A stretch of 64,000 nt of DNA, taken from contig DATJZY010000025.1 of the NCBI GenBank assembly GCA_035577985.1, positions 66,229 to 130,228 of the forward strand, read 5' to 3'. A model generated the notes under the pieces. The model was given only the letters and a program-made list of their open reading frames with translations, did not search any database and was not told the origin of the DNA. The stretch is from Candidatus Eiseniibacteriota bacterium. Its GTDB lineage: Bacteria > Desulfobacterota > Binatia > DP-6. Numbering within the stretch: the stretch's first letter is position 1; every line of letters starts with the position of its first letter. Both the position numbers and the translations under genes were made by a program. Below are positions 2,770 to 60,896 of the stretch, one piece after another.

Positions 2770-3158
2770 TGGGTGCGAGCGCGTTCGACATCGTCGACAC
2801 CTACGTCCATCTCGCCGACGGGCCGGAGGCCGTGCCCGTCCCCGTGGGCCCCGACTTCTGGGCGACGATCGATCGACGAAGCGACCTGCACCGGGGCCGA
2901 CTCGTCACGGCGTATCGCTTCGAGCCGGGTAAATGGAACCATTGGGAGATGCACCCGGCGGGCGACGAGATCGTGTGTCAGTTCTCGGGCGCGATGGACC
3001 TCGTTCTGGAGATGGGACGGGACGAGCGGACGGTCGAGCTCCGGGGACGATCCGCGTTCATCATCCCGCGCGGCGTCTGGCACTCGGCGATCGTGCACGC
3101 GCCGAGCGAGGCGCTCTTCATCACGCGCGGCGAGGGAACCGAGCACCGCCCCGCGTAG
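2770..3158 (+). CDS. Cupin domain protein
   Basis: GGAG RBS then ATG 2770; motifs HPAGDEIVCQFSG and RGVWHS (cupin metal-binding His motifs); in-frame downstream part of ORF 2679..3158. Confidence 0.65.
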
Positions 3159-3165
3159 GCGTCGA

Positions 3166-5157
3166 TCAACGGGCGCGGCTCGCGGCGTCCTTGAGCAGCT
3201 GGTCGATCGCCGTGGCGCAGTCGGGGCCGATGGAACCCTTGCGACCCGCCTTGCGCGCCGACTTCGCGGCCTTCTTCAGCTTGCCGCGCGACTTCGCGAG
3301 CAGGCGCTTCCGCGCCTTCGCGGCGGCCGCAGCCTGCGCCTTCTCGAGCACGGTCCGCGCGGCGTCGACGCGAGCCCCGATCGCCGCCGGAATGCTGTCG
3401 CTCTTGCACGCCGCCGGCGGGTAGCCGCGCAGCACGCACAGCGCGCCGTCCGCGCCGATCGCCGGGCAGGCGACGGTGAGCGAGGCGGTCGCGGTTGCCG
3501 AGCTCGCACTCCCGTCCGTGGCCGCGAACGTGAACGAGTCGTCGCCGTCGAATCCGGCAGCCGGCGTGTACGCGACGGCTCCCGACGCCTCGTCGATCGA
3601 TTCGAGGGTGCCGTGCATGGGGGCGGCCACGATCGAGCGCGTGATGGGATCCCCGTTGGGGTCGTTGCACGACAACGCGATCATCGTGCGCGTCCCGTTC
3701 GGGACGAGCGAGGATACGTTCGCGCAGATCGGCGCGACCTCCCGGGAGAACGCCGACACCGCACTGCTGCCATCCGCCCGGGTGTAGGCGGTTGCGTTGT
3801 CGGCACTCACGACGAGGGATGACACGGCGATCAGAGCGACCCCGTCGGCGCACTGCCCGCCCGTTCCAGTCTCGCTGACACAGCCGGCGGTACCCGGGAG
3901 TTGCGAGATCTTGCCGTCGGCGGGATCGCGGGAGAATACGGCCACGGCGCTGACTGGATCGATCGAGACGACGTAGACGCTCAGCCCGTCGGGGGAGACC
4001 ACGGCCCAGTTCGCGCGAGCGAGCGCCTTCCCCGTCGCGCATCCCGGCGGCGCCGGCGCTTCGGCGATGCAGCCGGCGGGACCGGCGAGCTGCGTCAGCG
4101 TACCGGCTGCCGGGTCGCGGGCGAAGATCGTGACCGTACCGGAGCCTCCCCCGGAGGCCACGTATGCGTTGGCGCCATCGGGGCTGATCCCGACGTGGGC
4201 TACGAAGGTGAGACCGTTGCCTTCGGAACATGCTCCGCCGCTGCCGCTCGCGCTGACGCAGCCGGCGGTGCCGGGGAGCTGCGTGAGCGCGCCGAGCGGA
4301 GCGTCGCGCGAGAAGATCGCGATCGCGCCGTTGTTGTTCGAGGCGACGTACGCGAACTTGTCGTCGGGGCTGAGCGTGATCTGCCGGGGACCGGCGAGCG
4401 CGACGCCGTCGGCACAGCTCCCCGCCGTGCCGCCGGTGTGGTCGAAGCCATCTTCGCTGACGCAGCCGTCGGTGCCGGAAAGCTGGGTCAGCGCGCCGGT
4501 CGATGCGTCGCGCGAGAACGCGGCGATCGAGTTGCCGAAGGACGAGGCGACGTAGACGTTCGCGCCGTCGGCGCTGACCTGCACCGAACGAACACCGCTG
4601 AGCCCCCTGCCGTCGACGCAGCTTCCCGCTGTGCCTCCGGGGTGATCGAAGCCATCCTCGCTGATGCAGCCGCTGGTCCCGGGAAGCTGTGTCAGCGCGC
4701 CGGTCGACGTGTCGCGCGAGAACGCCGCGACCGAATCGCTGTTCTGGCCAGTGAGGTAGACGTTCCGACCGTCGGCGCTGACCGCCACGCTGGTCGCGCC
4801 CTCCAGGCCTCTGCCGGCCGTGCAGCCAGGCGTCGCCATCGGGTCCTCTGCGACGCAACCGGCGCTACCCGGTAGCTGTGTGAGGACGCCGCTCGCCGGG
4901 TCGCGCGACAGGACGGCCACGCCATGCTGGGATGCGCTGTACACGTTCTTGCCGTCGGGGCTGAGGGCAATCACGCCGTAGCCGTCGGCGGCGAGGGCGT
5001 TGCCGTCGGTGCAGGCGCCGCCCGTGCCATCGTCGGAGATGCAGGCGTCGAGGCCGGAGAGCTGGGTGAGAGCGCCGAGCGGGGGCGGAATCGCCGAGGC
5101 GCGTCCCGCGAGCGCGGTGAGGGCGGCCCAAAGGAGGACGGTGCTTGCGTTCTTCAT
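3166..5157 (-). CDS. Secreted beta-propeller repeat protein (YVTN/lactonase-like repeats) with Lys-rich C-terminal helical tail
   Basis: Start chosen at MKNASTVLLWAALTALAG (signal peptide); at least 7 repeats of VSxDGxNVYVxS...AFSRDxxTGALTQLxGTxGC; C-terminal KARKRLLAKSRGKLKKAAK tail. Confidence 0.7.
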   Translation of the reverse strand: MKNASTVLLWAALTALAGRASAIPPPLGALTQLSGLDACISDDGTGGACTDGNALAADGYGVIALSPDGKNVYSASQHGVAVLSRDPASGVLTQLPGSAGCVAEDPMATPGCTAGRGLEGATSVAVSADGRNVYLTGQNSDSVAAFSRDTSTGALTQLPGTSGCISEDGFDHPGGTAGSCVDGRGLSGVRSVQVSADGANVYVASSFGNSIAAFSRDASTGALTQLSGTDGCVSEDGFDHTGGTAGSCADGVALAGPRQITLSPDDKFAYVASNNNGAIAIFSRDAPLGALTQLPGTAGCVSASGSGGACSEGNGLTFVAHVGISPDGANAYVASGGGSGTVTIFARDPAAGTLTQLAGPAGCIAEAPAPPGCATGKALARANWAVVSPDGLSVYVVSIDPVSAVAVFSRDPADGKISQLPGTAGCVSETGTGGQCADGVALIAVSSLVVSADNATAYTRADGSSAVSAFSREVAPICANVSSLVPNGTRTMIALSCNDPNGDPITRSIVAAPMHGTLESIDEASGAVAYTPAAGFDGDDSFTFAATDGSASSATATASLTVACPAIGADGALCVLRGYPPAACKSDSIPAAIGARVDAARTVLEKAQAAAAAKARKRLLAKSRGKLKKAAKSARKAGRKGSIGPDCATAIDQLLKDAASRAR

Positions 5158-41729: not shown

Positions 41730-42665
41730 ATGAGCCCTGGCGTCTCCGAGGCATGGCCGGCGCTTCCGCTCGAGGCGTGGAGCGACACCTACGCCACGCT
41801 CCACATGTGGTCGCAGATCGCCGGCAAGGTCCGCCTCGTGCAGAGCCCGTGGCTGAACCACTCCTGGCACGTGACGCTCTACGTGACCGCGCGGGGGCTG
41901 ACCACGTCGCCCATCCCGCACGGCGTACGCGCGTTCCAGATCGACTTCGACTTCATCGACCACCACGTCGCCGTCCGCGTGAGCGACGGCGGGACGGCGC
42001 GGGTGCCGCTCGAGCCGCAGTCGGTGGCGTCGTTCTACCGCCGCCTGATGGACGCGTTGGATGGGCTCGGCCTGCACGTCGACATCCGCACGCGGCCGAA
42101 CGAGGTGCCCGACCCGGTCCCGTTCGATCGCAACGAGGCCCAGCGCGCCTACGATCGGGAGTACGCGAACCGGTTCTGGCACGCGCTCGTCCAGGCCGAT
42201 CGCGTCTTCAAGATCTTCCGCGCGCGCTTCATCGGGAAGTGCAGCCCCGTGCACTTCTTCTGGGGCGCGCCGGATCTGGCGGTCACGCGATTCTCGGGAC
42301 GGCGCGCGCCGGAGCACCCCGGCGGCGTGCCCAATCTACCGGACTGGGTGACGCGCGAAGCGTACTCGCACGAGGTGAGCAGCTGCGGCTTCTGGGCCGG
42401 CGGCGGTGCGGTGCCGCACGCCGCGTTCTACTCCTATGCATACCCGGAGCCGCCGGGATTCGCGCAGGCCAAGGTCCGGCCGGGCGCGGCGTTCTACAGC
42501 ACCGATCTGCGTGAGTTCCTCCTGCCCTACGACGCCGTTCGCGAGGCCGAGGCGCCGGACCAGACGCTGCTCGACTTCCTGCAGTCCACGTACGAGGCCG
42601 CGGCGATCGCAGCCAAGTGGGATCGCGCCGCTCTCGAGCGCGCGGCCGAGCCGCACCGGCCGTGA
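41730..42665 (+). CDS. DUF5996-family conserved hypothetical protein
   Basis: N-terminus WPALPLEAWSDTYATLHMWSQIAGKVRL matches my recollection of DUF5996; 311 aa, GC3-biased. Confidence 0.5.
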   Translation: MSPGVSEAWPALPLEAWSDTYATLHMWSQIAGKVRLVQSPWLNHSWHVTLYVTARGLTTSPIPHGVRAFQIDFDFIDHHVAVRVSDGGTARVPLEPQSVASFYRRLMDALDGLGLHVDIRTRPNEVPDPVPFDRNEAQRAYDREYANRFWHALVQADRVFKIFRARFIGKCSPVHFFWGAPDLAVTRFSGRRAPEHPGGVPNLPDWVTREAYSHEVSSCGFWAGGGAVPHAAFYSYAYPEPPGFAQAKVRPGAAFYSTDLREFLLPYDAVREAEAPDQTLLDFLQSTYEAAAIAAKWDRAALERAAEPHRP

Positions 42666-43291
42666 GCAGATCGTACAACCAGGTTGCCGGCACGAGCCTC
42701 GAGCGCATCGCGGCCCTGAGCGACGGGCTCTTCGCCATCGCCATGACGCTGATCGTGCTCGAGATCCACGTCCCGGTGCGCGAGAGCCTCCACACCGAGG
42801 GTGAGCTCTGGTGGGCGCTGGTCGCGCTCGGCCCGCGCATGGTGACCTATCTCATGAGCTTCCTCACCCTCGGCATCTTCTGGGTCGGGCAGCAGACGCA
42901 ACTGAACCACTTCCGGCACGCGAACCGCCACCTCACCTGGATCCACCTGGCGTTCCTGGCCCTGGTCGCCTTGATGCCCTTTTCGACCGAGCTGCTGGCG
43001 GAGTTCATCACCTTCCGCACGGCGCTCCTGGTCTACTGGCTGAACGTCGTGTTCCTCGGCGTCGTGCTCTACGCGTCGTGGCGGTACGCGCGCGGGGCCG
43101 CGCTCTTGAGGCCGGAGACGACGGACGAGATCTCCGACGCCGTCGTGCGCCGCATCGCCGTCGCCCAGAGCCTCTATGCCGTCGGCGCGGCACTCTGCGT
43201 CCTCGGCACCGGGTGGAGCATCGCGTTCATCGTCCTCGTGCAGCTCAACTACGCGATCGCACCGCGCTTTCTGTCCGACGCCCTCGGTTAG
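42662..43291 (+). CDS. TMEM175/DUF1211-family membrane protein (putative K+ channel homologue)
   Basis: LERIAALSDGLFAIAMTLIVLEI (RxxxFSD-like signature helix) repeated in the second half (TELLAEFITF...); GTG start overlapping the upstream TGA. Confidence 0.6.
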   Translation: MSRSYNQVAGTSLERIAALSDGLFAIAMTLIVLEIHVPVRESLHTEGELWWALVALGPRMVTYLMSFLTLGIFWVGQQTQLNHFRHANRHLTWIHLAFLALVALMPFSTELLAEFITFRTALLVYWLNVVFLGVVLYASWRYARGAALLRPETTDEISDAVVRRIAVAQSLYAVGAALCVLGTGWSIAFIVLVQLNYAIAPRFLSDALG

Positions 43292-50166: not shown

Positions 50167-50246
50167 CTTCAGCAATCCACCATCCGGCATTGTGCCGGGA
50201 ATCCCCGCGGGTTGCGAGGCAGCCACGCCGCTTCTATGGTCGACGC

Positions 50247-51365
50247 GTGACGCCGCGCGAGCTGCTTCGATCCATCCGCGACGAGCTGCGGAGCCAATTC
50301 CTCGAGCGCACCGAGCTGATCGACGGCGCGCTGCTCGGGCTCCTGGCCGGACAGCACGTGCTCGTGATCGGACCGCCGGGCACGGCGAAGTCGATGCTCG
50401 CCGACGAGGTGTGCCGGCGCATCACGGGCGCGCGATATTTCCAGTGGCTGCTGACGCGCTTCACGACGCCCGAGGAGCTCTTCGGCGCCGTCAGCCTGAA
50501 GGCGCTCGAGGCCGACGACTACCGGCGCCTCACGACCCACAAGCTGCCCGAGGCGCACGTCGCCTTCCTGGACGAGGTGTTCAAGGCGAGCTCGTCGATC
50601 CTGAACACCATCCTGACGCTCATGAACGAGCGCCGCTTCCACAACGGGCGCGAGGTGACGAGCGTCCCGCTGCTGACGCTGTTCGGCGCCTCCAACGAGC
50701 TGCCCGAGGACGACGAGCTGCTGGCGCTCCAGGACCGCTTCCTGCTTCGCTACGAGGTCCGCTACATCGAAGAGGACTTCCGGTTCCTGAAGCTGCTCCA
50801 GGCGAAGGGCCCCGACACCCGGACGACGATGACGCTCGCCGAGCTCGAGACGGCGCGCGCCGAGGCGGCGGCCCTGCCCGTGCCGGGTCAGGTGCTTCGC
50901 GCCGTGACCGACGTCCGGCGCGAGCTCGGCCGCAAGCAGGTGGTCGCGTCCGATCGGCGTTACGCGCAGGCGATCGGCCTCCTGCGCGCGCACGCCTACC
51001 TCGGTGGCCGCGAGGCCGTCGCCGAGGGCGACGTCGCGGTGCTCGAGCACGTCCTGTGGCGCGATCCCGCCGAGCGCCAGGCGGTGCGCGACACCATCCG
51101 CGAGCAGCTCCACGGCTACGAGGACGAGGCGCAGGTCCTGCTCTTCCAATCGCGCGAGCTGCGCGACTACGCGCTGCGGAGCTGGGAAACGACCGAGCTG
51201 CAGAGCCGTGCCGCCGTCGAGGCGCACACGAAGCTCCGCAGCATCGTCGGCAAGGTCGAGACGATCCTCTCCGACGCACAGTCGACCGGGCGCGCGACCA
51301 GCAAGGTCGAGTCCGTGCGCGACGAGATCCTGCAGATCCAGCGCGACATGCTGACGCGGCTCTGA
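50247..51365 (+). CDS. ravA: MoxR-class AAA+ ATPase, RavA-like
   Basis: GPPGTAKS Walker A; YFQWLLTRFTTPEELFG and LPEAHVAFLDEVFKASSSILNTILTLMNERRF align closely with my recollection of E. coli RavA; start could be TTG 50190 or GTG 50247. Confidence 0.75.
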   Translation: MTPRELLRSIRDELRSQFLERTELIDGALLGLLAGQHVLVIGPPGTAKSMLADEVCRRITGARYFQWLLTRFTTPEELFGAVSLKALEADDYRRLTTHKLPEAHVAFLDEVFKASSSILNTILTLMNERRFHNGREVTSVPLLTLFGASNELPEDDELLALQDRFLLRYEVRYIEEDFRFLKLLQAKGPDTRTTMTLAELETARAEAAALPVPGQVLRAVTDVRRELGRKQVVASDRRYAQAIGLLRAHAYLGGREAVAEGDVAVLEHVLWRDPAERQAVRDTIREQLHGYEDEAQVLLFQSRELRDYALRSWETTELQSRAAVEAHTKLRSIVGKVETILSDAQSTGRATSKVESVRDEILQIQRDMLTRL

Positions 51366-54921: not shown

Positions 54922-56799
54922 TCAGCCGAGGGCGGCGAGCAACTGCTTCAGATCGTCGTAGATGGATCGTGTTTCGCCCAGCAGCGGCATCCGCGTTGCG
55001 TCGGGAATGATCTTCCGGGCGGATCGCGATTTCAAGCGGTGCTGGAGGGTGCTCAGGCGCCTGACCGCCTTCTTCACGACGTTTTTCTGCTTCTTCGCCC
55101 CACCGAGGCCTTCGGCTGCCTGCAGCTTCTCGCGCACCTTCGCCGCGATCATGACGAGACCGTTCTGCAGTCGCCCCAGGTCGCTCGCGGCCTGCAGCCG
55201 CGTCACGAGGGCGTCGAGCCGGCATTCGATCGACTCGAAGGTCGCAACGGCTCGGCAGCCCGGGAGCGTCGTGGTGCTCGTCGTGGTCGACGTCGACGTC
55301 TCGCAGGTCTCCAGTGGATCGGGGGCCCGCTCGTAGGATCCGATGTCGCACCGCTTCCCCACGGGTCGCGTGACTCCACGCTGGTCGACGATCTCGCACG
55401 CGTCGCCACCGCTGCCGACCGGTCCGGGGCTTCCCGCTTCGATCGCCGGGCTGCACGACAGAAGGACGTGCAGCGCCGTCGGACCTCCTTCCACGACGGC
55501 GAGCTCGTCGAGCATCGGATCGACACCCGTGACGTCGCCCGGGCCTGCGAGCCGACTGCAGTCGGCCGAGTTCTCGATGAGCGAGTAGCCGTCCGATACC
55601 AGCGTCTGCGGGTTCCCGACCGATTCCGTGAAGCAGTCGGGTCCGGCGGTGGGGAGCGGCGGGTCTGCGGTCGTGGTGTTGTCCGCAATGATCGTGTTCC
55701 GAACGTGGAAGGTCCCTGAATCGAGGGCGACTCCTCCGCCACGTGCTGCGGGTACGGTCCCGACGAGCGGCAGCGGCGGCGATCTGTCGACGGCATTGCG
55801 TGCGATGGTGACGTTGCTGAGGCTCCACGACCCTCCGCCCTGCGCCGAGATCCCGCCGCCCTCGGCGCGTCCCAACCAGTCGACGAATACGGCGTTCGAG
55901 CTGATCGTGCTGTTGACGATCGTGAAGGTGGCGCCGCCCGCCTCGCCAATGCCGCCTCCGAGGCCGTCGCCGTTCGGGACGGAGATCGTGTTGCCGACGA
56001 TGGTCGAACGCTCGATCGTCCAGGTGGCCATTCCCCGATCCGAGATGCCGGCACCCTCGGCGTTTGCGTCGATCGAACCGGCTGTGTTCCCACCGATCGT
56101 CGACTCGACGATGGTGACGTTCGCGGGAGCGCTCGCCGAAATGCCCCCTCCATAGACCGACCCCGTCGACACCGTCACGGAGTTGACCACGAGCCGACTG
56201 CGCGTGATCGTGACCGTCGCGGCGGCGGACAGCTGGATCGCGCCACCCTCGGCCGCTTGGTTGTTGCTGAAGCTGGAGTCCGTGATCGCTACGCTCGGGC
56301 TCGCTCCCGCTACGAAGAGTCCGCCGCCGAGACACCCGTCGCCGCAGCGGTTGGCGTTGACCTGGCTGCTCACGAGCGCGAGCTTTCCGCCATCGACCCG
56401 GATGCCGCCGCCATGATCGCCAGGCTCCGTCAGGCGACCGCCCATCAGCACGACGTGCTCGAACGTCAGATCGCCCGACGGTGCGACCTCGACGATGCGA
56501 AACGAAGCCACTGCGCCCGGCGCCCGCGCGATGCTGGAATCCGGCCCGCCGCTCACCGATGCCGATCCGACGATCGTGATCTTGCTGGTGACGACCGGCA
56601 GCCCATTTACCCCGTTGTCCGCTGCGGGAAGCGAGTAGACCTCTCCGGGTGCGAGGTTGATCGTGTCGTCCTCCGCGCTCGCGTTGGCCGCAGCGATGGC
56701 GGCGACCAGCGCCGGGACGTCGCCCGCCGGAACGTCGACGACCGCAGCTACGGCGGCGCGCGAGACGATCACGGCGATGAGGGCGACGATCGAGCGCAC
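54922..56799 (-). CDS. Secreted right-handed beta-helix protein ending in CDIGSYE motif, Thr-rich linker and Lys-rich C-terminal helical tail
   Basis: Signal peptide MRSIVALIAVIVSRAAVA; repeated GG..NT/NS..I/V beta-helix rungs; CDIGSYE; TSTSTTTSTTTLPG; KKQKNVVKKAVRRL tail. Confidence 0.75.
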   Translation of the reverse strand: MRSIVALIAVIVSRAAVAAVVDVPAGDVPALVAAIAAANASAEDDTINLAPGEVYSLPAADNGVNGLPVVTSKITIVGSASVSGGPDSSIARAPGAVASFRIVEVAPSGDLTFEHVVLMGGRLTEPGDHGGGIRVDGGKLALVSSQVNANRCGDGCLGGGLFVAGASPSVAITDSSFSNNQAAEGGAIQLSAAATVTITRSRLVVNSVTVSTGSVYGGGISASAPANVTIVESTIGGNTAGSIDANAEGAGISDRGMATWTIERSTIVGNTISVPNGDGLGGGIGEAGGATFTIVNSTISSNAVFVDWLGRAEGGGISAQGGGSWSLSNVTIARNAVDRSPPLPLVGTVPAARGGGVALDSGTFHVRNTIIADNTTTADPPLPTAGPDCFTESVGNPQTLVSDGYSLIENSADCSRLAGPGDVTGVDPMLDELAVVEGGPTALHVLLSCSPAIEAGSPGPVGSGGDACEIVDQRGVTRPVGKRCDIGSYERAPDPLETCETSTSTTTSTTTLPGCRAVATFESIECRLDALVTRLQAASDLGRLQNGLVMIAAKVREKLQAAEGLGGAKKQKNVVKKAVRRLSTLQHRLKSRSARKIIPDATRMPLLGETRSIYDDLKQLLAALG

Positions 56800-56954
56800 G
56801 CTCCTCCCTACTCACGGCTCCCGCCGAGGTGTCAACGCTTTTCTGCTCGACGTGTCACGATCGGCACAGGCCCAGGGCAAAAAGGGATGCACGGCTTGTA
56901 ACGCCTCCCGAGCCACGGGATGGTGCCGAACGCTTCGATGGAGCGTGGGATCGC

Positions 56955-58799
56955 ATGATCAGCCTGGTTCGACCACCGTGCGACGAGGGCGTCGTCCGCG
57001 GCGCACCCGAGACGCCCGGATGTGCCTCGCACGCCAAACGCTGGGTCCTGCTGGCGACCATACTGGGCTCGAGCGTCGCGTTCCTCGAGGCGTCGGTGAT
57101 CAACGTCGCCCTGCCCGCCATCCAGACGGCGCTCGGCGCCTCGATGGCGGGGATGCAGTGGGTCGCCAGCGCGTACACGCTCCTGCTCGCCGCGCTGACC
57201 CTGGCCGGCGGCGCGGCGGGTGACCGCTTCGGCACGCGACGCCTGTTCGCGGCGGGGACGGCCATCCTCGGCCTCGCCTCCGTCGGGTGCGGGCTAGCGA
57301 CGACGTCGTCGCAACTGATTGCGGGCCGTGCGATCCAGGGCTGCGGCGCCGCGCTGCTCGTGCCGAACAGCCTCGCGCTTCTCAGCGCATCGTTTCCGAC
57401 TGCCGAGCGCGGCCGCGTGATCGGCACCTGGTCCGCCTTCACCGCCCTCACGGGCGCCGTGGGCCCGATTCTCGGAGGGTGGCTCGTCGACCTGGTGTCG
57501 TGGCGGGCCGGATTCCTGTCGATCGTGCCGCTCGCGATCGCGACCCTGGTGGTGACACACCTGCGCGTGCCGGACCCGCCGCGGCGACGGGTCGTGCGCG
57601 CGGTCGACTGGTGGGGAGCCGCGCTCGCGACGGCGGGGCTCACGGGCTTCGTCTTCGCGATCATCGCGTCCGGGTCGAGCGGGACGCCGCCGGGGCTGCC
57701 GATCGCCGCCCTCGTCGTCGGGATCGCCGGTGTCGCCGGCTTCGCGGTCCTCGAATCGCGGTCGCAAGCGCCCATGGTCCCGCCGGCGTTGTTTCGTTCG
57801 GGGACGTTTCGCGGCGTGAACCTGCTCACCTTGCTGCTGTACTTCGGGGTGAGCGCGGCCTTCTTCGTGCTCCCCTTCAACCTGATCCAGGTCCAGGGCT
57901 ACTCCGCGACGCTGACGGGCGCGGCCTATCTCCCGTTCGCCCTCCTCGTCGGCGGGCTGTCGCGCTCGGTCGGCACGCTCGGCGATCGACTCGGCGTGAA
58001 GCCGCTCCTCGTCGTGGGGCCCCTCGTCGCCGCCGCCGGCCTCGCCCTGTTCGCGTTGCCGCGCATCGGCGGGTCGTATTGGACGACCTTCTTCCCGCCC
58101 ATGCTGCTGACGGGCATCGGGATGGCGCTCACCGTCGCACCGCTGACCTCGACGGTCATGGGAACGGTCACCCCGAGCGAGGCCGGCGTCGCCTCCGGCG
58201 TCAACAACACGGTCGCGCGTGTGGCGGCGCTGCTCGCCGTCGCGATCGTCGGCACGCTCACCCTGCCGCTGTTCTCCCGGGCCCTCACCCGCCGGCTCGA
58301 GCCGGTCGCCGTGACACCGGCGGTCCGCCAATTGCTCCTCGCCGAGCGTCGCAGCCTGGCCGACATCGCGATCCCCGCGTCGATCGCCGGCAGCGAGCGG
58401 CCGGTGCTCCAGCGCCTCGTCGGCGACGCGTTCGTCGAGAGCTTCCAGTGGGTCGCCATCATCAGCGCGTGCTGCGCGCTCGCAGGTGCGATCGGCGCCG
58501 CTGCGTTGATCCAGGTCGTCGCACCCGCCGGCGCGGACGACGCGACGGCGGCGTGTGGCCACCTGGATCAGATCCGCGAGCTGCCGGTCGGTGAGCTGAG
58601 CTGCCCGGAGTGCCTGGCCCGTGGAGACGCGTGGGTCCACCTCCGGCTCTGCCTCACCTGCGGGCACGTCGGGTGCTGCGACTCGTCGAAGAACCGTCAC
58701 GCGTCGGCGCACTTCTGGGCCACCAGGCACCCGATCGTCCGGTCGCTGGAGCCCGGCGAGGATTGGCGCTGGTGCTACGTCGACGAGATCGTCGTGTAG
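56955..58799 (+). CDS. MFS transporter (14-TM, DHA2/EmrB-like) fused to C-terminal UBP-type zinc-finger (zf-UBP) domain
   Basis: MFS motif A region (GDRFGTRR), 14 hydrophobic segments; C-terminus CPECLARGDAWVHLRLCLTCGHVGCCDSSKNRHASAHF...WRWCYVD matches zf-UBP Cys/His pattern. Confidence 0.75.
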   Translation: MISLVRPPCDEGVVRGAPETPGCASHAKRWVLLATILGSSVAFLEASVINVALPAIQTALGASMAGMQWVASAYTLLLAALTLAGGAAGDRFGTRRLFAAGTAILGLASVGCGLATTSSQLIAGRAIQGCGAALLVPNSLALLSASFPTAERGRVIGTWSAFTALTGAVGPILGGWLVDLVSWRAGFLSIVPLAIATLVVTHLRVPDPPRRRVVRAVDWWGAALATAGLTGFVFAIIASGSSGTPPGLPIAALVVGIAGVAGFAVLESRSQAPMVPPALFRSGTFRGVNLLTLLLYFGVSAAFFVLPFNLIQVQGYSATLTGAAYLPFALLVGGLSRSVGTLGDRLGVKPLLVVGPLVAAAGLALFALPRIGGSYWTTFFPPMLLTGIGMALTVAPLTSTVMGTVTPSEAGVASGVNNTVARVAALLAVAIVGTLTLPLFSRALTRRLEPVAVTPAVRQLLLAERRSLADIAIPASIAGSERPVLQRLVGDAFVESFQWVAIISACCALAGAIGAAALIQVVAPAGADDATAACGHLDQIRELPVGELSCPECLARGDAWVHLRLCLTCGHVGCCDSSKNRHASAHFWATRHPIVRSLEPGEDWRWCYVDEIVV

Positions 58800-58842: not shown

Positions 58843-60795
58843 CTATTCTGGAAGATCTGCTGCGACGATCGCGTTCCGTACGGGCCCGCCCATGAGCGCG
58901 GCCGAGAAGACCACGGCGCCGCCTGCCGCAGAGACTCGCGGATCGGTCTCGACGTTGCGCGTATCGAAGCGGACCGTCCCGAGGGATGTGGCATCACCCT
59001 CCTGCAGGAGCGGCACCGCCGAGTCGGGATGCGCCTCGAAGAGCGCCATCATGCGGGTGGCGGGGTCTTCGGCGAGAAAGAGCGCCCGGCCATCGGTGAG
59101 TTCGACCGAAGACGGCTCGACGGGAACCAGGCGTCCGTCCGGACCGACAACCGTCGTCGACAAGAGCGTGCTCTGGGCGCGCCGTCTCACGACGAGGTCC
59201 GACGTTGGTCTATTCGCCGCTAGCGCGGCGTAGAGGATCGCCGCGCCGTCTGCCGCGACGTCGCCGAGTTCCTCGAACTTTCCGCGTCGGCCGCACGTCT
59301 CGGTTCCGGCCGTGGCGATCGGCAACAATGCCCTGCCACGAGAGACGAAGATCCCGTCGCAGTCCGCCGACTGATATGTTGCGCGGACGACTACGCGGTG
59401 ACCCGCGATATCGAGACGGACCAGGCCGGGATCTGCAAACCGCTTTCGCGCCGGCAGCTTCAACAGCTGTAGGCCCCCTCGGCGCAGCGCAACGTCTTGG
59501 CCTCGGACGTACGCGACCCCGGCCCGTCCCGCCGCCAGTTGTCCGTCGAAGGGCGCCAATGCCGTCTCGCCGTCGGCCTCGGCCGTCTCGAGGACCTTGA
59601 TCTTCCCGTTGCGCCACTGTCCGATGACGCGCGCATCGGAGTCGGTGAGCGCGACGAAGGCGACGACGCCGTCGCCGGCAGCGTGCCGCTCCACGGTCAC
59701 GACCCGTCCTGCGCTCCCGAGTACATCGCCCGGCGCGAGGAGGGACGTCGTCTCTTCGCCCGTGCGCGCGAGCAGCGCCTGCGTCGCCGTGACCACGTAC
59801 GGCGCCGTGCTCGCGGGGGCGGGCGCTGTCGGGGGGGCTGGTGCCGTCACGATCACGCCGTCCTTGGCCCAAACTTCGGCTCGGGTCCGAAGAGGACGGT
59901 GGCCGCGGAGCTCGACGAAGAGATCGAGCGATCCATCCGGCGCGAAGCCTTTCAACTCGAGGAACCTGTAGATTTGCCGCTCGCCGACCGCCGCGCCGAT
60001 GCTGGCGGCGGTCGAGATCATCCCGGTGACCGGAGACCACACGCCGGCATATGCCGAGGTGCGCCCGGCCAGAAAGCCGACGCCGAAGCTCGCGTCCAAG
60101 GCGAGGCCGAGTCGGCGAAGCCTGGACGACCGTCGTAGATCGTCGCTGAATACCGTCACCGAACCGCGCTCGGGCGACCAGTAGAAGATCCCGCCTTCTC
60201 TGCCTTCGAGCAGCCACGCAATCTCGCCGTCGTCGAGGATGGTCGGTCGCACACGCCGGATGCGCCCCCGGCGTGGGAACGTGCCGATTTGTGTCGACGC
60301 GCCGGTCGCACGCAGCCAGCTGAAGATACCGTGCGCATTCCAGTACACCAGGTCCGCACGTCCGTTGATGCCGAGCGAGACGAGTCCCAACCCGCTCGTC
60401 GCCGGCGACACGACCGCCGGGGTCACGACGTCGCCCTCGACCAGGAAGACGACGTCGGCCCCGTCGACGCTGTTGACGTTGGTGGAGACGGCGAGCACGC
60501 CGAGGGTACCGAGCACTGCCTCCCCGATCGCGTTGAGCGAGCCGTCGAGCGGCGGTGCGAGCGCATCCCCCGTCGCGAGAACCTTGCGTGTGGTGCCGTC
60601 CACCTCACGTGTGAGCGCATACCGCACGGCCCGAAACACGGTGCGCTGCTTCGAGACGGCAACCGGGTCGACGAACTCGGCCGTCGCAAACCCCGCCGGC
60701 GACGTGCCGGATTGCGCCACGATACGCAGCTCTCCCCGAGCACTCGGCGCGGTGATGGCTGCCACCAGGCTCACCGCAACGAGCGCAAGACGCAT
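58843..60795 (-). CDS. Hypothetical secreted protein (650 aa, beta-rich)
   Basis: Signal peptide MRLALVAVSLVAAITAPSARG; no family recognised. Confidence 0.5.
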   Translation of the reverse strand: MRLALVAVSLVAAITAPSARGELRIVAQSGTSPAGFATAEFVDPVAVSKQRTVFRAVRYALTREVDGTTRKVLATGDALAPPLDGSLNAIGEAVLGTLGVLAVSTNVNSVDGADVVFLVEGDVVTPAVVSPATSGLGLVSLGINGRADLVYWNAHGIFSWLRATGASTQIGTFPRRGRIRRVRPTILDDGEIAWLLEGREGGIFYWSPERGSVTVFSDDLRRSSRLRRLGLALDASFGVGFLAGRTSAYAGVWSPVTGMISTAASIGAAVGERQIYRFLELKGFAPDGSLDLFVELRGHRPLRTRAEVWAKDGVIVTAPAPPTAPAPASTAPYVVTATQALLARTGEETTSLLAPGDVLGSAGRVVTVERHAAGDGVVAFVALTDSDARVIGQWRNGKIKVLETAEADGETALAPFDGQLAAGRAGVAYVRGQDVALRRGGLQLLKLPARKRFADPGLVRLDIAGHRVVVRATYQSADCDGIFVSRGRALLPIATAGTETCGRRGKFEELGDVAADGAAILYAALAANRPTSDLVVRRRAQSTLLSTTVVGPDGRLVPVEPSSVELTDGRALFLAEDPATRMMALFEAHPDSAVPLLQEGDATSLGTVRFDTRNVETDPRVSAAGGAVVFSAALMGGPVRNAIVAADLPE

Positions 60796-60896
60796 GGTCG
60801 TAGCTGCCTCATGCATCTCGTTCGAGTCAACCTCGCCAGGTGCCTTCCGACACCCGGGCCTGGAAATCGCGCAGCAGTCGCGGTAGCTGCCGGTCC

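Follow-up and report, generated by a model that had tools for sequence, protein, structure and literature searches.

A DHA2-type MFS transporter gene with a C-terminal bacterial zf-UBP zinc finger, a putative one-component sensor-exporter

The gene and its product

We analyzed a stretch of 64,000 nucleotides (hereafter the window) from a Candidatus Eiseniibacteriota bacterium (assembly GCA_035577985.1, contig DATJZY010000025.1, positions 66,229 to 130,228 of the forward strand), in which one gene encodes a transporter of the major facilitator superfamily (MFS) that ends in a UBP-type zinc finger (zf-UBP). The gene lies within an open reading frame (ORF) at positions 56829-58799 of the forward strand, and its reading frame has a GC content at third codon positions (GC3) of 0.89. 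Because the homologs begin with MxSxxRPPCD, the start was placed at the ATG at position 56955, where the N-termini of 63 homologs share this consensus, giving a protein of 614 aa. The features of the gene and its product are listed in Table 1.

Table 1. Features of the MFS-zf-UBP gene and its product, with positions in the window
Feature	Position	Strand	Basis
GGAG, possible ribosome-binding site 11 nt 5' of the ATG	56940..56943	+	read from sequence; weak evidence
Complete gene, DHA2-type MFS with zf-UBP, 614 codons plus stop	56955..58799	+	ORF, homolog N-termini, Pfam, NCBIfam
Conserved N-terminal tail, predicted cytoplasmic, residues 6-30, RPPCDEGVVRGAPETPGCASHAKRW	56970..57044	+	column counts in 64 fusion proteins
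MFS core, residues 31-518, 14 transmembrane helices	57045..58508	+	AlphaFold model, TIGR00711 match, motifs
Variable linker from TM14 to the finger, residues 519-533	58509..58553	+	column entropy of 2-3 bits versus 0 at C534; pLDDT <50
zf-UBP domain, bacterial RPA1320 type, residues 534-610	58554..58784	+	Pfam, 2IDA, Foldseek, conservation
G573-C574-C575-D576 loop in place of the eukaryotic "C-G-R" gatekeeper	58671..58682	+	HMMER alignment to USP16, MAFFT, conservation

The transporter core was recognized by both profile collections. Pfam assigned residues 36-428 to MFS_1 (E = 3e-48), and TIGR00711 (DHA2/EmrB) was by far the best NCBIfam match, scoring 219.5 bits, just below its cutoff of 230.2, over residues 32-511 of the protein and positions 4-478 of the 485 in the model. 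The AlphaFold2 model, built with 64 homologs, contains 14 long helices with a pLDDT of ~90. Motif A can be read from the sequence as G89-D-R-F-G-T-R-R96 (GDRFGTRR), with its key residues invariant, and the antiporter motif C, GAVGPILGG, occupies residues 167-175 in TM5, where P171, G174 and G175 are invariant. The protein thus shares its best NCBIfam match, its 14 helices and motifs A and C with the DHA2 (EmrB/QacA, TIGR00711) drug:H+ antiporters of 14 transmembrane segments, whereas its score lies below the curated cutoff and it carries additional conserved cytoplasmic modules at its N- and C-termini. Certain MFS antiporters of 14 transmembrane segments, Tet(L) among them, exchange Na+/K+ for H+. 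According to standard MFS topology, the 14 helices together with the basic N-terminal tail imply that both termini should be cytoplasmic.

The N-terminal tail is itself well conserved. D10, A17, P21, G22, C23 and W30 are invariant among 64 fusion proteins, 58 of which also have H26. A version of this tail, PPC[DE]EGV...PC, is kept in orthologous transporters whose finger is encoded by a separate gene (loci L006-L008, from Trueperaceae, Chitinophagaceae and Rubrobacteraceae), and the motif is absent from the split-form MFS proteins of Actinomadura. The conserved tail could be a contact site or a thiol partner of the zinc finger.

A bacterial type of zf-UBP domain

The original prediction described a DHA2-type MFS protein of 14 transmembrane helices with a cytoplasmic C-terminal zf-UBP domain and proposed a Pfam search on the C-terminal Cys/His cluster. 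This description is confirmed by Pfam, NCBIfam, AlphaFold and Foldseek: the cluster matched zf-UBP (PF02148) over residues 550-611 with 45.6 bits against a gathering cutoff of 22.7 (E = 8e-12). The domain had been placed at residues 560-656, which follows the numbering of the longer ORF of 656 aa; in the 614-aa protein it corresponds to residues 534-610. The identification is far beyond chance.

The closest relative of known structure is bacterial. The C-terminal 82 aa matched PDB entry 2IDA, RPA1320 of Rhodopseudomonas palustris, at E = 7e-29 with ~60% identity over 80 residues, and the matches of the same segment to eukaryotic domains were much weaker (USP16, 3e-5; HDAC6, 3e-4; USP5, 0.03). 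A Foldseek search with a domain-only model likewise returned 2IDA first (E = 1e-6), followed by the zf-UBP domains of HDAC6, USP16, USP49 and USP5, with TM scores of ~0.5; the pLDDT of this model, 67, is sufficient for fold assignment and too low for side-chain analysis. RPA1320 is a 102-aa "hypothetical protein" whose structure has been solved since 2006. It shares with our domain the signature CxH...CxxC...WVHLRxCxxCGHVGCCD...H...H...H...WxWCYVDE, and the motifs CGHVGCCDSS and W-x-W-C-Y-V-D-E are present in the window protein, as in bacterial zf-UBP domains of this type. RPA1320 stands alone, whereas the finger in the window is covalently joined to a pump of 14 transmembrane helices.

Conservation was assessed in 185 bacterial sequences, comprising 64 fusions and 121 standalone proteins. 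The candidate zinc ligands are C534, H536, C550, C553, C566, C569, C574 or C575, H582, H586, H592, C607 and D610, and their positions are invariant or at least 98% conserved. For comparison, we take the ligands of the three zinc ions in HDAC6 to be C1113, H1115, C1133, C1136, C1145, C1148, C1153, H1160, H1164, H1170, C1183 and C1186. The HDAC6 and USP5 domain sequences used here are 100% matches to PDB entries, and the zinc ligands served as anchors for their residue numbers. Of the 12 HDAC6 positions, 11 are conserved, and the twelfth (C1186) is replaced by the invariant Asp610. An additional invariant cysteine, Cys575, gives a vicinal pair, C574-C575. Beyond the ligands, R564, D576, S578, E602 and W604 are also invariant.

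Distribution and fusion partners

The same fusion, which the original prediction had called a rare architecture, is found in all of the best 120 full-length matches to the window protein: at 56-83% identity, every one carries both PF02148 and PF07690. These proteins are 598-625 aa long, except for one truncated entry of 551 aa, and the named ones come from metagenome-assembled genomes (MAGs) of Candidatus Binatia. The finger had also been regarded as a eukaryotic module, a view that does not agree with the abundance of its bacterial form. A search with the domain alone gave at least 8000 matches, the best 120 of which were standalone proteins of 83-145 aa; many of the standalone matches are annotated as "UBP-type zinc finger domain-containing protein". 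Among 1.8 billion cluster representatives, an exhaustive search identified 1517 clusters (50% identity) at E ≤ 1e-10. A list of bacterial mini-proteins with a standalone zf-UBP domain had appeared by 2008 (PMC2602986).

We also scanned GTDB species genomes with both signature motifs and obtained at least 598 confirmed zf-UBP loci. The domain was found in Acidobacteriota, Planctomycetota, Cyanobacteria, Chloroflexota and at least one archaeon (Methanosarcinales). ORFs were analyzed for 80 retained loci. Because the loci had been ranked by how closely they resemble the fused query, the resulting MFS-linked frequency of ~3% among zf-UBP loci is only a rough figure.

True MFS-zf-UBP fusions are present in the window, in L001-L005 and L086-L088, and in L021, the last from Pseudonocardia. 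In other genomes the two parts are encoded by separate, adjacent genes. The zf-UBP gene immediately precedes a DHA2 MFS gene of the same strand in Trueperaceae (L006), Chitinophagaceae (L007), Solirubrobacterales (L015) and four Actinomadura species (L016, L018, L024 and L026), and immediately follows one, again on the same strand, in Acidimicrobiia (L014). In all eight of these pairs the genes overlap or are at most 40 bp apart. Two Duganella species (L017 and L022) have convergent MFS and zf-UBP genes separated by 2-17 bp. Adjacent split forms are found in at least five phyla, among them Deinococcota, Bacteroidota, Actinomycetota and Pseudomonadota, and the MFS proteins encoded in split form at L006-L008 share 49-52% identity with the full length of the window protein. 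Such a combination of fused and neighboring genes is classic Rosetta-stone and neighborhood evidence, from which this MFS subfamily and the finger would be expected to work together.

The finger is also joined to other proteins. It is found at the C-terminus of CPA2/Kef-like proteins that combine Na_H_Exchanger with TrkA_N, with or without TrkA_C (L031, L052, L058 and L064), and of CPA1-type exchangers (L025 and L059). In one case it is N-terminal on a diadenylate cyclase (DAC; L032, positions 1348-2343), which links the finger to c-di-AMP signaling. This signaling pathway controls K+ transport. In 37 longer representatives, the partners among the matches listed were TrkA_N (9), TrkA_C (7), Na_H_Exchanger (6), MFS_1 (2), TerC (2), MnhG (1), DAC (1), PNPOx (1) and LtrA (1). 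The common theme, as judged from these domain architectures, is a cytoplasmic addition to proton-coupled ion or drug transporters, which points to a generic regulatory module.

Gene neighborhoods of standalone and fused fingers

To describe the surroundings of the standalone fingers, the neighbors of ~57 standalone loci were clustered and the clusters were named with Pfam. At 15 of these loci, a flavoprotein of ~550 aa combining Response_reg or cNMP_binding with Pyr_redox_2, or a thioredoxin reductase of the TrxB type (~310 aa), is encoded within 3.5 kb of the finger and mostly adjacent to it. In five loci from Acidobacteriota MAGs (L044, L047, L048, L071 and L072), the TrxB-type gene lies 0-164 bp from the standalone zf-UBP gene. 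A kinase combining cNMP_binding with HATPase_c is encoded within the same distance at 11 loci, and a DUF5996 gene within 153 bp at 12. Proline dehydrogenase was seen at four loci and is the next gene in several of the loci of the TrxB type. A cNMP/redox gene context of bacterial zf-UBP was reportedly described by Burroughs, Iyer and Aravind in Mol Biosyst in 2011. The partners are said to be the same, cNMP- or REC-fused flavoproteins resembling thioredoxin reductase (TrxR) together with cNMP-binding kinases; the window differs from that context in that its finger forms part of an MFS protein and the partner genes are absent from the 64 kb.

The window itself contains a DUF5996 gene at 41730-42665 (+; Pfam, 481 bits), 14 kb from the fused finger, whose product is 58% identical to a DUF5996 protein from a standalone locus. 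The 3' end of this gene overlaps a gene for a potassium channel of the TMEM175 type at 42617-43291 (+).

The surroundings of the fused gene are more varied. No conserved operon partner was found across 10 loci with the fused gene. Redox genes do occur: a pair encoding a cNMP kinase and a REC-flavoprotein lies 0.5 kb upstream of the fused gene in L003, a Pyr_redox_2 gene lies downstream of it in L004, and small redox flavoenzymes are encoded directly upstream of it in L002, L003 and L088. In the window, the fused gene is flanked by genes on the opposite strand, which encode two proteins without a Pfam match, a fatty acid hydroxylase, a short-chain dehydrogenase/reductase (SDR) and a CoA-transferase, and it therefore appears to be monocistronic. 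No riboswitch that might point to a substrate was detected with Rfam in the region 5' of the gene (56300-57300).

The two flanking ORFs without a Pfam match, at 54922-56799 (-) and 58843-60816 (-), encode 625 and 657 aa, respectively. The former is rich in Gly, Ser, Thr and Ala and has a repeat-like character that suggests secretion. Elsewhere in the window, the gene at 50190-51365 (+) encodes an AAA ATPase of the bpMoxR type, a component of MoxR-vWA-beta-propeller ternary systems.

The pocket that reads ubiquitin tails in eukaryotes

The original prediction held that the fusion implies regulation of the pump by a protein with a Gly-Gly tail. In USP5, HDAC6 and USP16, holding the ubiquitin C-terminus requires an arginine in the pocket. 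The HDAC6 double mutant R1155A/Y1184A still folds but has lost ubiquitin binding, and the gatekeepers closing over Gly75-Gly76 are R1155 and Y1156 (PMC3268394); the USP16 counterparts of R1155 and Y1184 are R84 and Y117 (PMC10424181).

The bacterial domain shares with those of USP5, HDAC6 and USP16 the Pfam family, the fold, most zinc-ligand positions and the pocket aromatics. W606, present in 185 of 185 sequences, and Y608, present in 181 and replaced by Phe in the other four, correspond to W1182 and Y1184 of HDAC6 and to Y259 and Y261 of USP5. The gatekeeper arginine, in contrast, is gone. In the ungapped HMMER alignment (CGHQGCGRNS in USP16, CGHVGCCDSS here), the position of HDAC6 R1155, USP16 R84 and USP5 R221 is taken by Asp576, whereas in a MAFFT alignment with HDAC6 and USP5 the register moves by one residue and Ser577 falls there. 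Position 576 is Asp in all 185 bacterial sequences; at position 577 these have S, A, N, D or Q, and none has R or K. Further differences are Asp in place of the last Cys ligand, the extra Cys575 and, relative to USP5 and HDAC6, the invariant R564 near the position of W1143/W209, as well as host organisms that lack ubiquitin. From the alignment, the canonical carboxylate-clamping chemistry is judged to be lost.

We also looked for proteins that might supply a tail. A scan of the 64-kb window for ORFs ending in GG, GGQ or GGE found none resembling ubiquitin-like proteins (Ubl), Pup, ThiS or MoaD. Its only coding-like match, an ORF of 163 aa at 2933-3424 (+) with a Gly-Gly end, has no Pfam match and exceeds the length expected of ThiS, MoaD or Pup; it has a GC3 of 0.94 over its last 80 codons, and the Gly-Gly ending is probably a coincidence. 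No Ubl- or Pup-like protein was among the recurrent neighbors in ~85 loci, and none of the recurrent partner proteins has a conserved C-terminal Gly-Gly or other tail. Together with the arginine position, which never holds R or K, these results speak against the proposed regulation by a Gly-Gly-tailed protein.

The fold alone need not mean binding of a Gly-Gly tail even in eukaryotes. Human USP20 and USP33 have zf-UBP domains that do not bind this tail and recognize internal [KR]xxL[NED] peptide motifs instead (bioRxiv 10.1101/2025.09.22.676098). For our domain, no such ligand is known or predicted.

A putative one-component sensor-exporter

The explanation that we favor, at about even confidence, is that the window gene encodes a one-component sensor-exporter whose zinc-thiolate tail senses redox state. 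The protein would be a proton-coupled exporter of the DHA2 family with a built-in cytoplasmic regulatory domain, the zf-UBP of the RPA1320 type. Oxidants or electrophiles, or a dedicated system of the thioredoxin-reductase type, would alter the state of the Cys-rich three-zinc cluster. The altered cluster might then change how the tail contacts the pump on its cytoplasmic side, perhaps at the Cys-containing N-terminal tail as well, and this changed contact would turn export up or down.

Several observations are consistent with such a switch. The TrxR-like and cNMP-binding partners recur beside standalone copies, and redox genes of this kind also lie near the fused gene in L003 and L004. The fused and split MFS forms, the fusions to other ion transporters and the replacement of the gatekeeper arginine by Asp support a regulatory module that does not read ubiquitin tails. 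A reactive or labile metal site would fit the invariant C574-C575 pair and the presence of Asp610 in place of the last Cys ligand. The lack of a conserved neighbor at the 10 fused loci is as expected for a one-component sensor-transporter. A comparable arrangement is known from KefC and other CPA2 antiporters, which are gated by C-terminal KTN/RCK domains that respond to thiol or electrophile chemistry. The window protein may work like these proteins without belonging to them: the shared plan would be a proton antiporter whose C-terminus forms a cytoplasmic sensor, and zf-UBP is also found on CPA2-TrkA_N proteins. However, the KTN sensor is Rossmann-like, whereas here it would be a zinc finger, and the transporter belongs to another superfamily.

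Other points weigh against this explanation. The zinc sites could be purely structural. A Pyr_redox_2 gene is near only two of the 10 fused loci, the redox neighbors being found mainly with standalone copies, and tblastn detected no gene for the cNMP- or TrxR-like partners in the 64-kb window. The gatekeeper position is ambiguous by one residue between the two alignments, and the role of the lost arginine might conceivably be taken over by K/R579 of the same loop. Because W606, Y608, R564, E602 and W604 are invariant, the remodeled pocket may still bind some ligand or peptide. In the full-length model the finger has a pLDDT of 30-55 and the N-terminal tail one below 55, values at which pocket geometry and docking are unreadable. 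Finally, the searchable literature holds no functional study of RPA1320 or of any other prokaryotic zf-UBP domain.

The foremost alternative, which we consider unlikely, is that the finger is a metal sensor or metal-binding tail; zinc had been the other possible regulator named in the original prediction. The finger, above all the Cys2-His-Asp site formed by C534, H536, C607 and D610, would bind zinc or another transition metal reversibly and so couple the cytoplasmic metal load to export, whether of a metal, of a metal chelate or of a metallophore. Such a protein would resemble the nickel-exporting MFS proteins NreB and NrsD, which have His-rich C-terminal tails. The invariant replacement of the fourth Cys ligand by Asp is compatible with this idea, as is the existence of TerC fusions. 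The neighborhoods also contain metal-related genes: the fused gene has nickel/cobalt-type and metal-uptake genes (NicO, NikR_C, HupE_UreJ_2, TonB-dependent receptors and TonB) within 7 kb in L002, L004, L005 and L087, it is followed immediately by a gene for an EntS-like MFS_3 protein in L002 and L003, and in L086 a gene for a P-type cation ATPase is found downstream of it. These neighbors could reflect a link to metals or metallophores, or they could be synteny; they are non-adjacent, vary from locus to locus and may come from related genomes with shared gene order. In the window, no metal-related gene was found within 10 kb of the fused gene. In addition, the main fusion partners of the finger are monovalent cation/proton antiporters, the main neighbors of the standalone copies are thiol-redox and cNMP proteins and not metal systems, and three-zinc treble-clef fingers are normally structural.

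The domain may instead serve a purely structural or oligomerization role, or act as a docking site for a cytoplasmic partner, without sensing anything; we think this quite improbable. Zinc fingers of this class often act as scaffolds for interactions, nothing points directly to sensing, and the split forms indicate that the finger is able to act in trans. However, an identity of 60-70% across phyla and an archaeon, with ~15 invariant residues other than ligands, exceeds what a scaffold usually needs, and repeated recruitment to unrelated transporter families and to signaling enzymes is typical of regulatory modules.

Very unlikely, in our view, is that the finger gates the pump by binding the free tail of a Gly-Gly-ended protein (Pup, a ThiS/MoaD-like protein or a bacterial ubiquitin-like protein) or another peptide: the fold, most of the pocket wall (W606 and Y608) and the backbone of the C-C-D loop are kept, the extreme conservation of R564, D576, S578, E602 and W604 suggests a conserved binding surface, and eukaryotic zf-UBP domains do bind peptides, as tails or internal motifs (bioRxiv 10.1101/2025.09.22.676098), but an invariant Asp (or Ser) in place of the gatekeeper arginine should repel a carboxylate (PMC3268394), the window and the recurrent neighbors provide no candidate tail, and the finger occurs in organisms from Acidobacteriota to a Methanosarcinales archaeon. 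The known range of Pup is far narrower than that of bacterial zf-UBP.

Implications

The gene in the window is an ordinary member of a large family and is caught by automatic annotation. Much of its background is already known: the fusion is present in precomputed Pfam annotation (>100 clusters), the radiation of bacterial zf-UBP has been described, and a structure has been solved. Even so, few small zinc fingers of soil bacteria are as strongly conserved as the bacterial zf-UBP, and it has been joined repeatedly to proton antiporters.

A more general reading, which we put forward tentatively and regard as less than probable, is that the bacterial finger is a universal switch ancestral to the ubiquitin-tail reader, acting either as a redox sensor serviced by a cNMP- or phospho-regulated TrxR-like enzyme or through a small-ligand pocket. 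As part of the same tentative reading, the pocket would have been remodeled by the change from Arg to Asp together with the invariant R564, E602, W604, W606 and Y608, and the switch would directly gate transporters of the DHA2 MFS, CPA1, CPA2, Mrp and TerC types as well as the c-di-AMP synthase.

If the redox or metal switch is real, it would provide bacteria with a simple one-component coupling of efflux, or of ion/proton exchange, to stress in the cytoplasm. The role that the ancestor of the eukaryotic ubiquitin-tail reader had before ubiquitin existed would then also become clearer.

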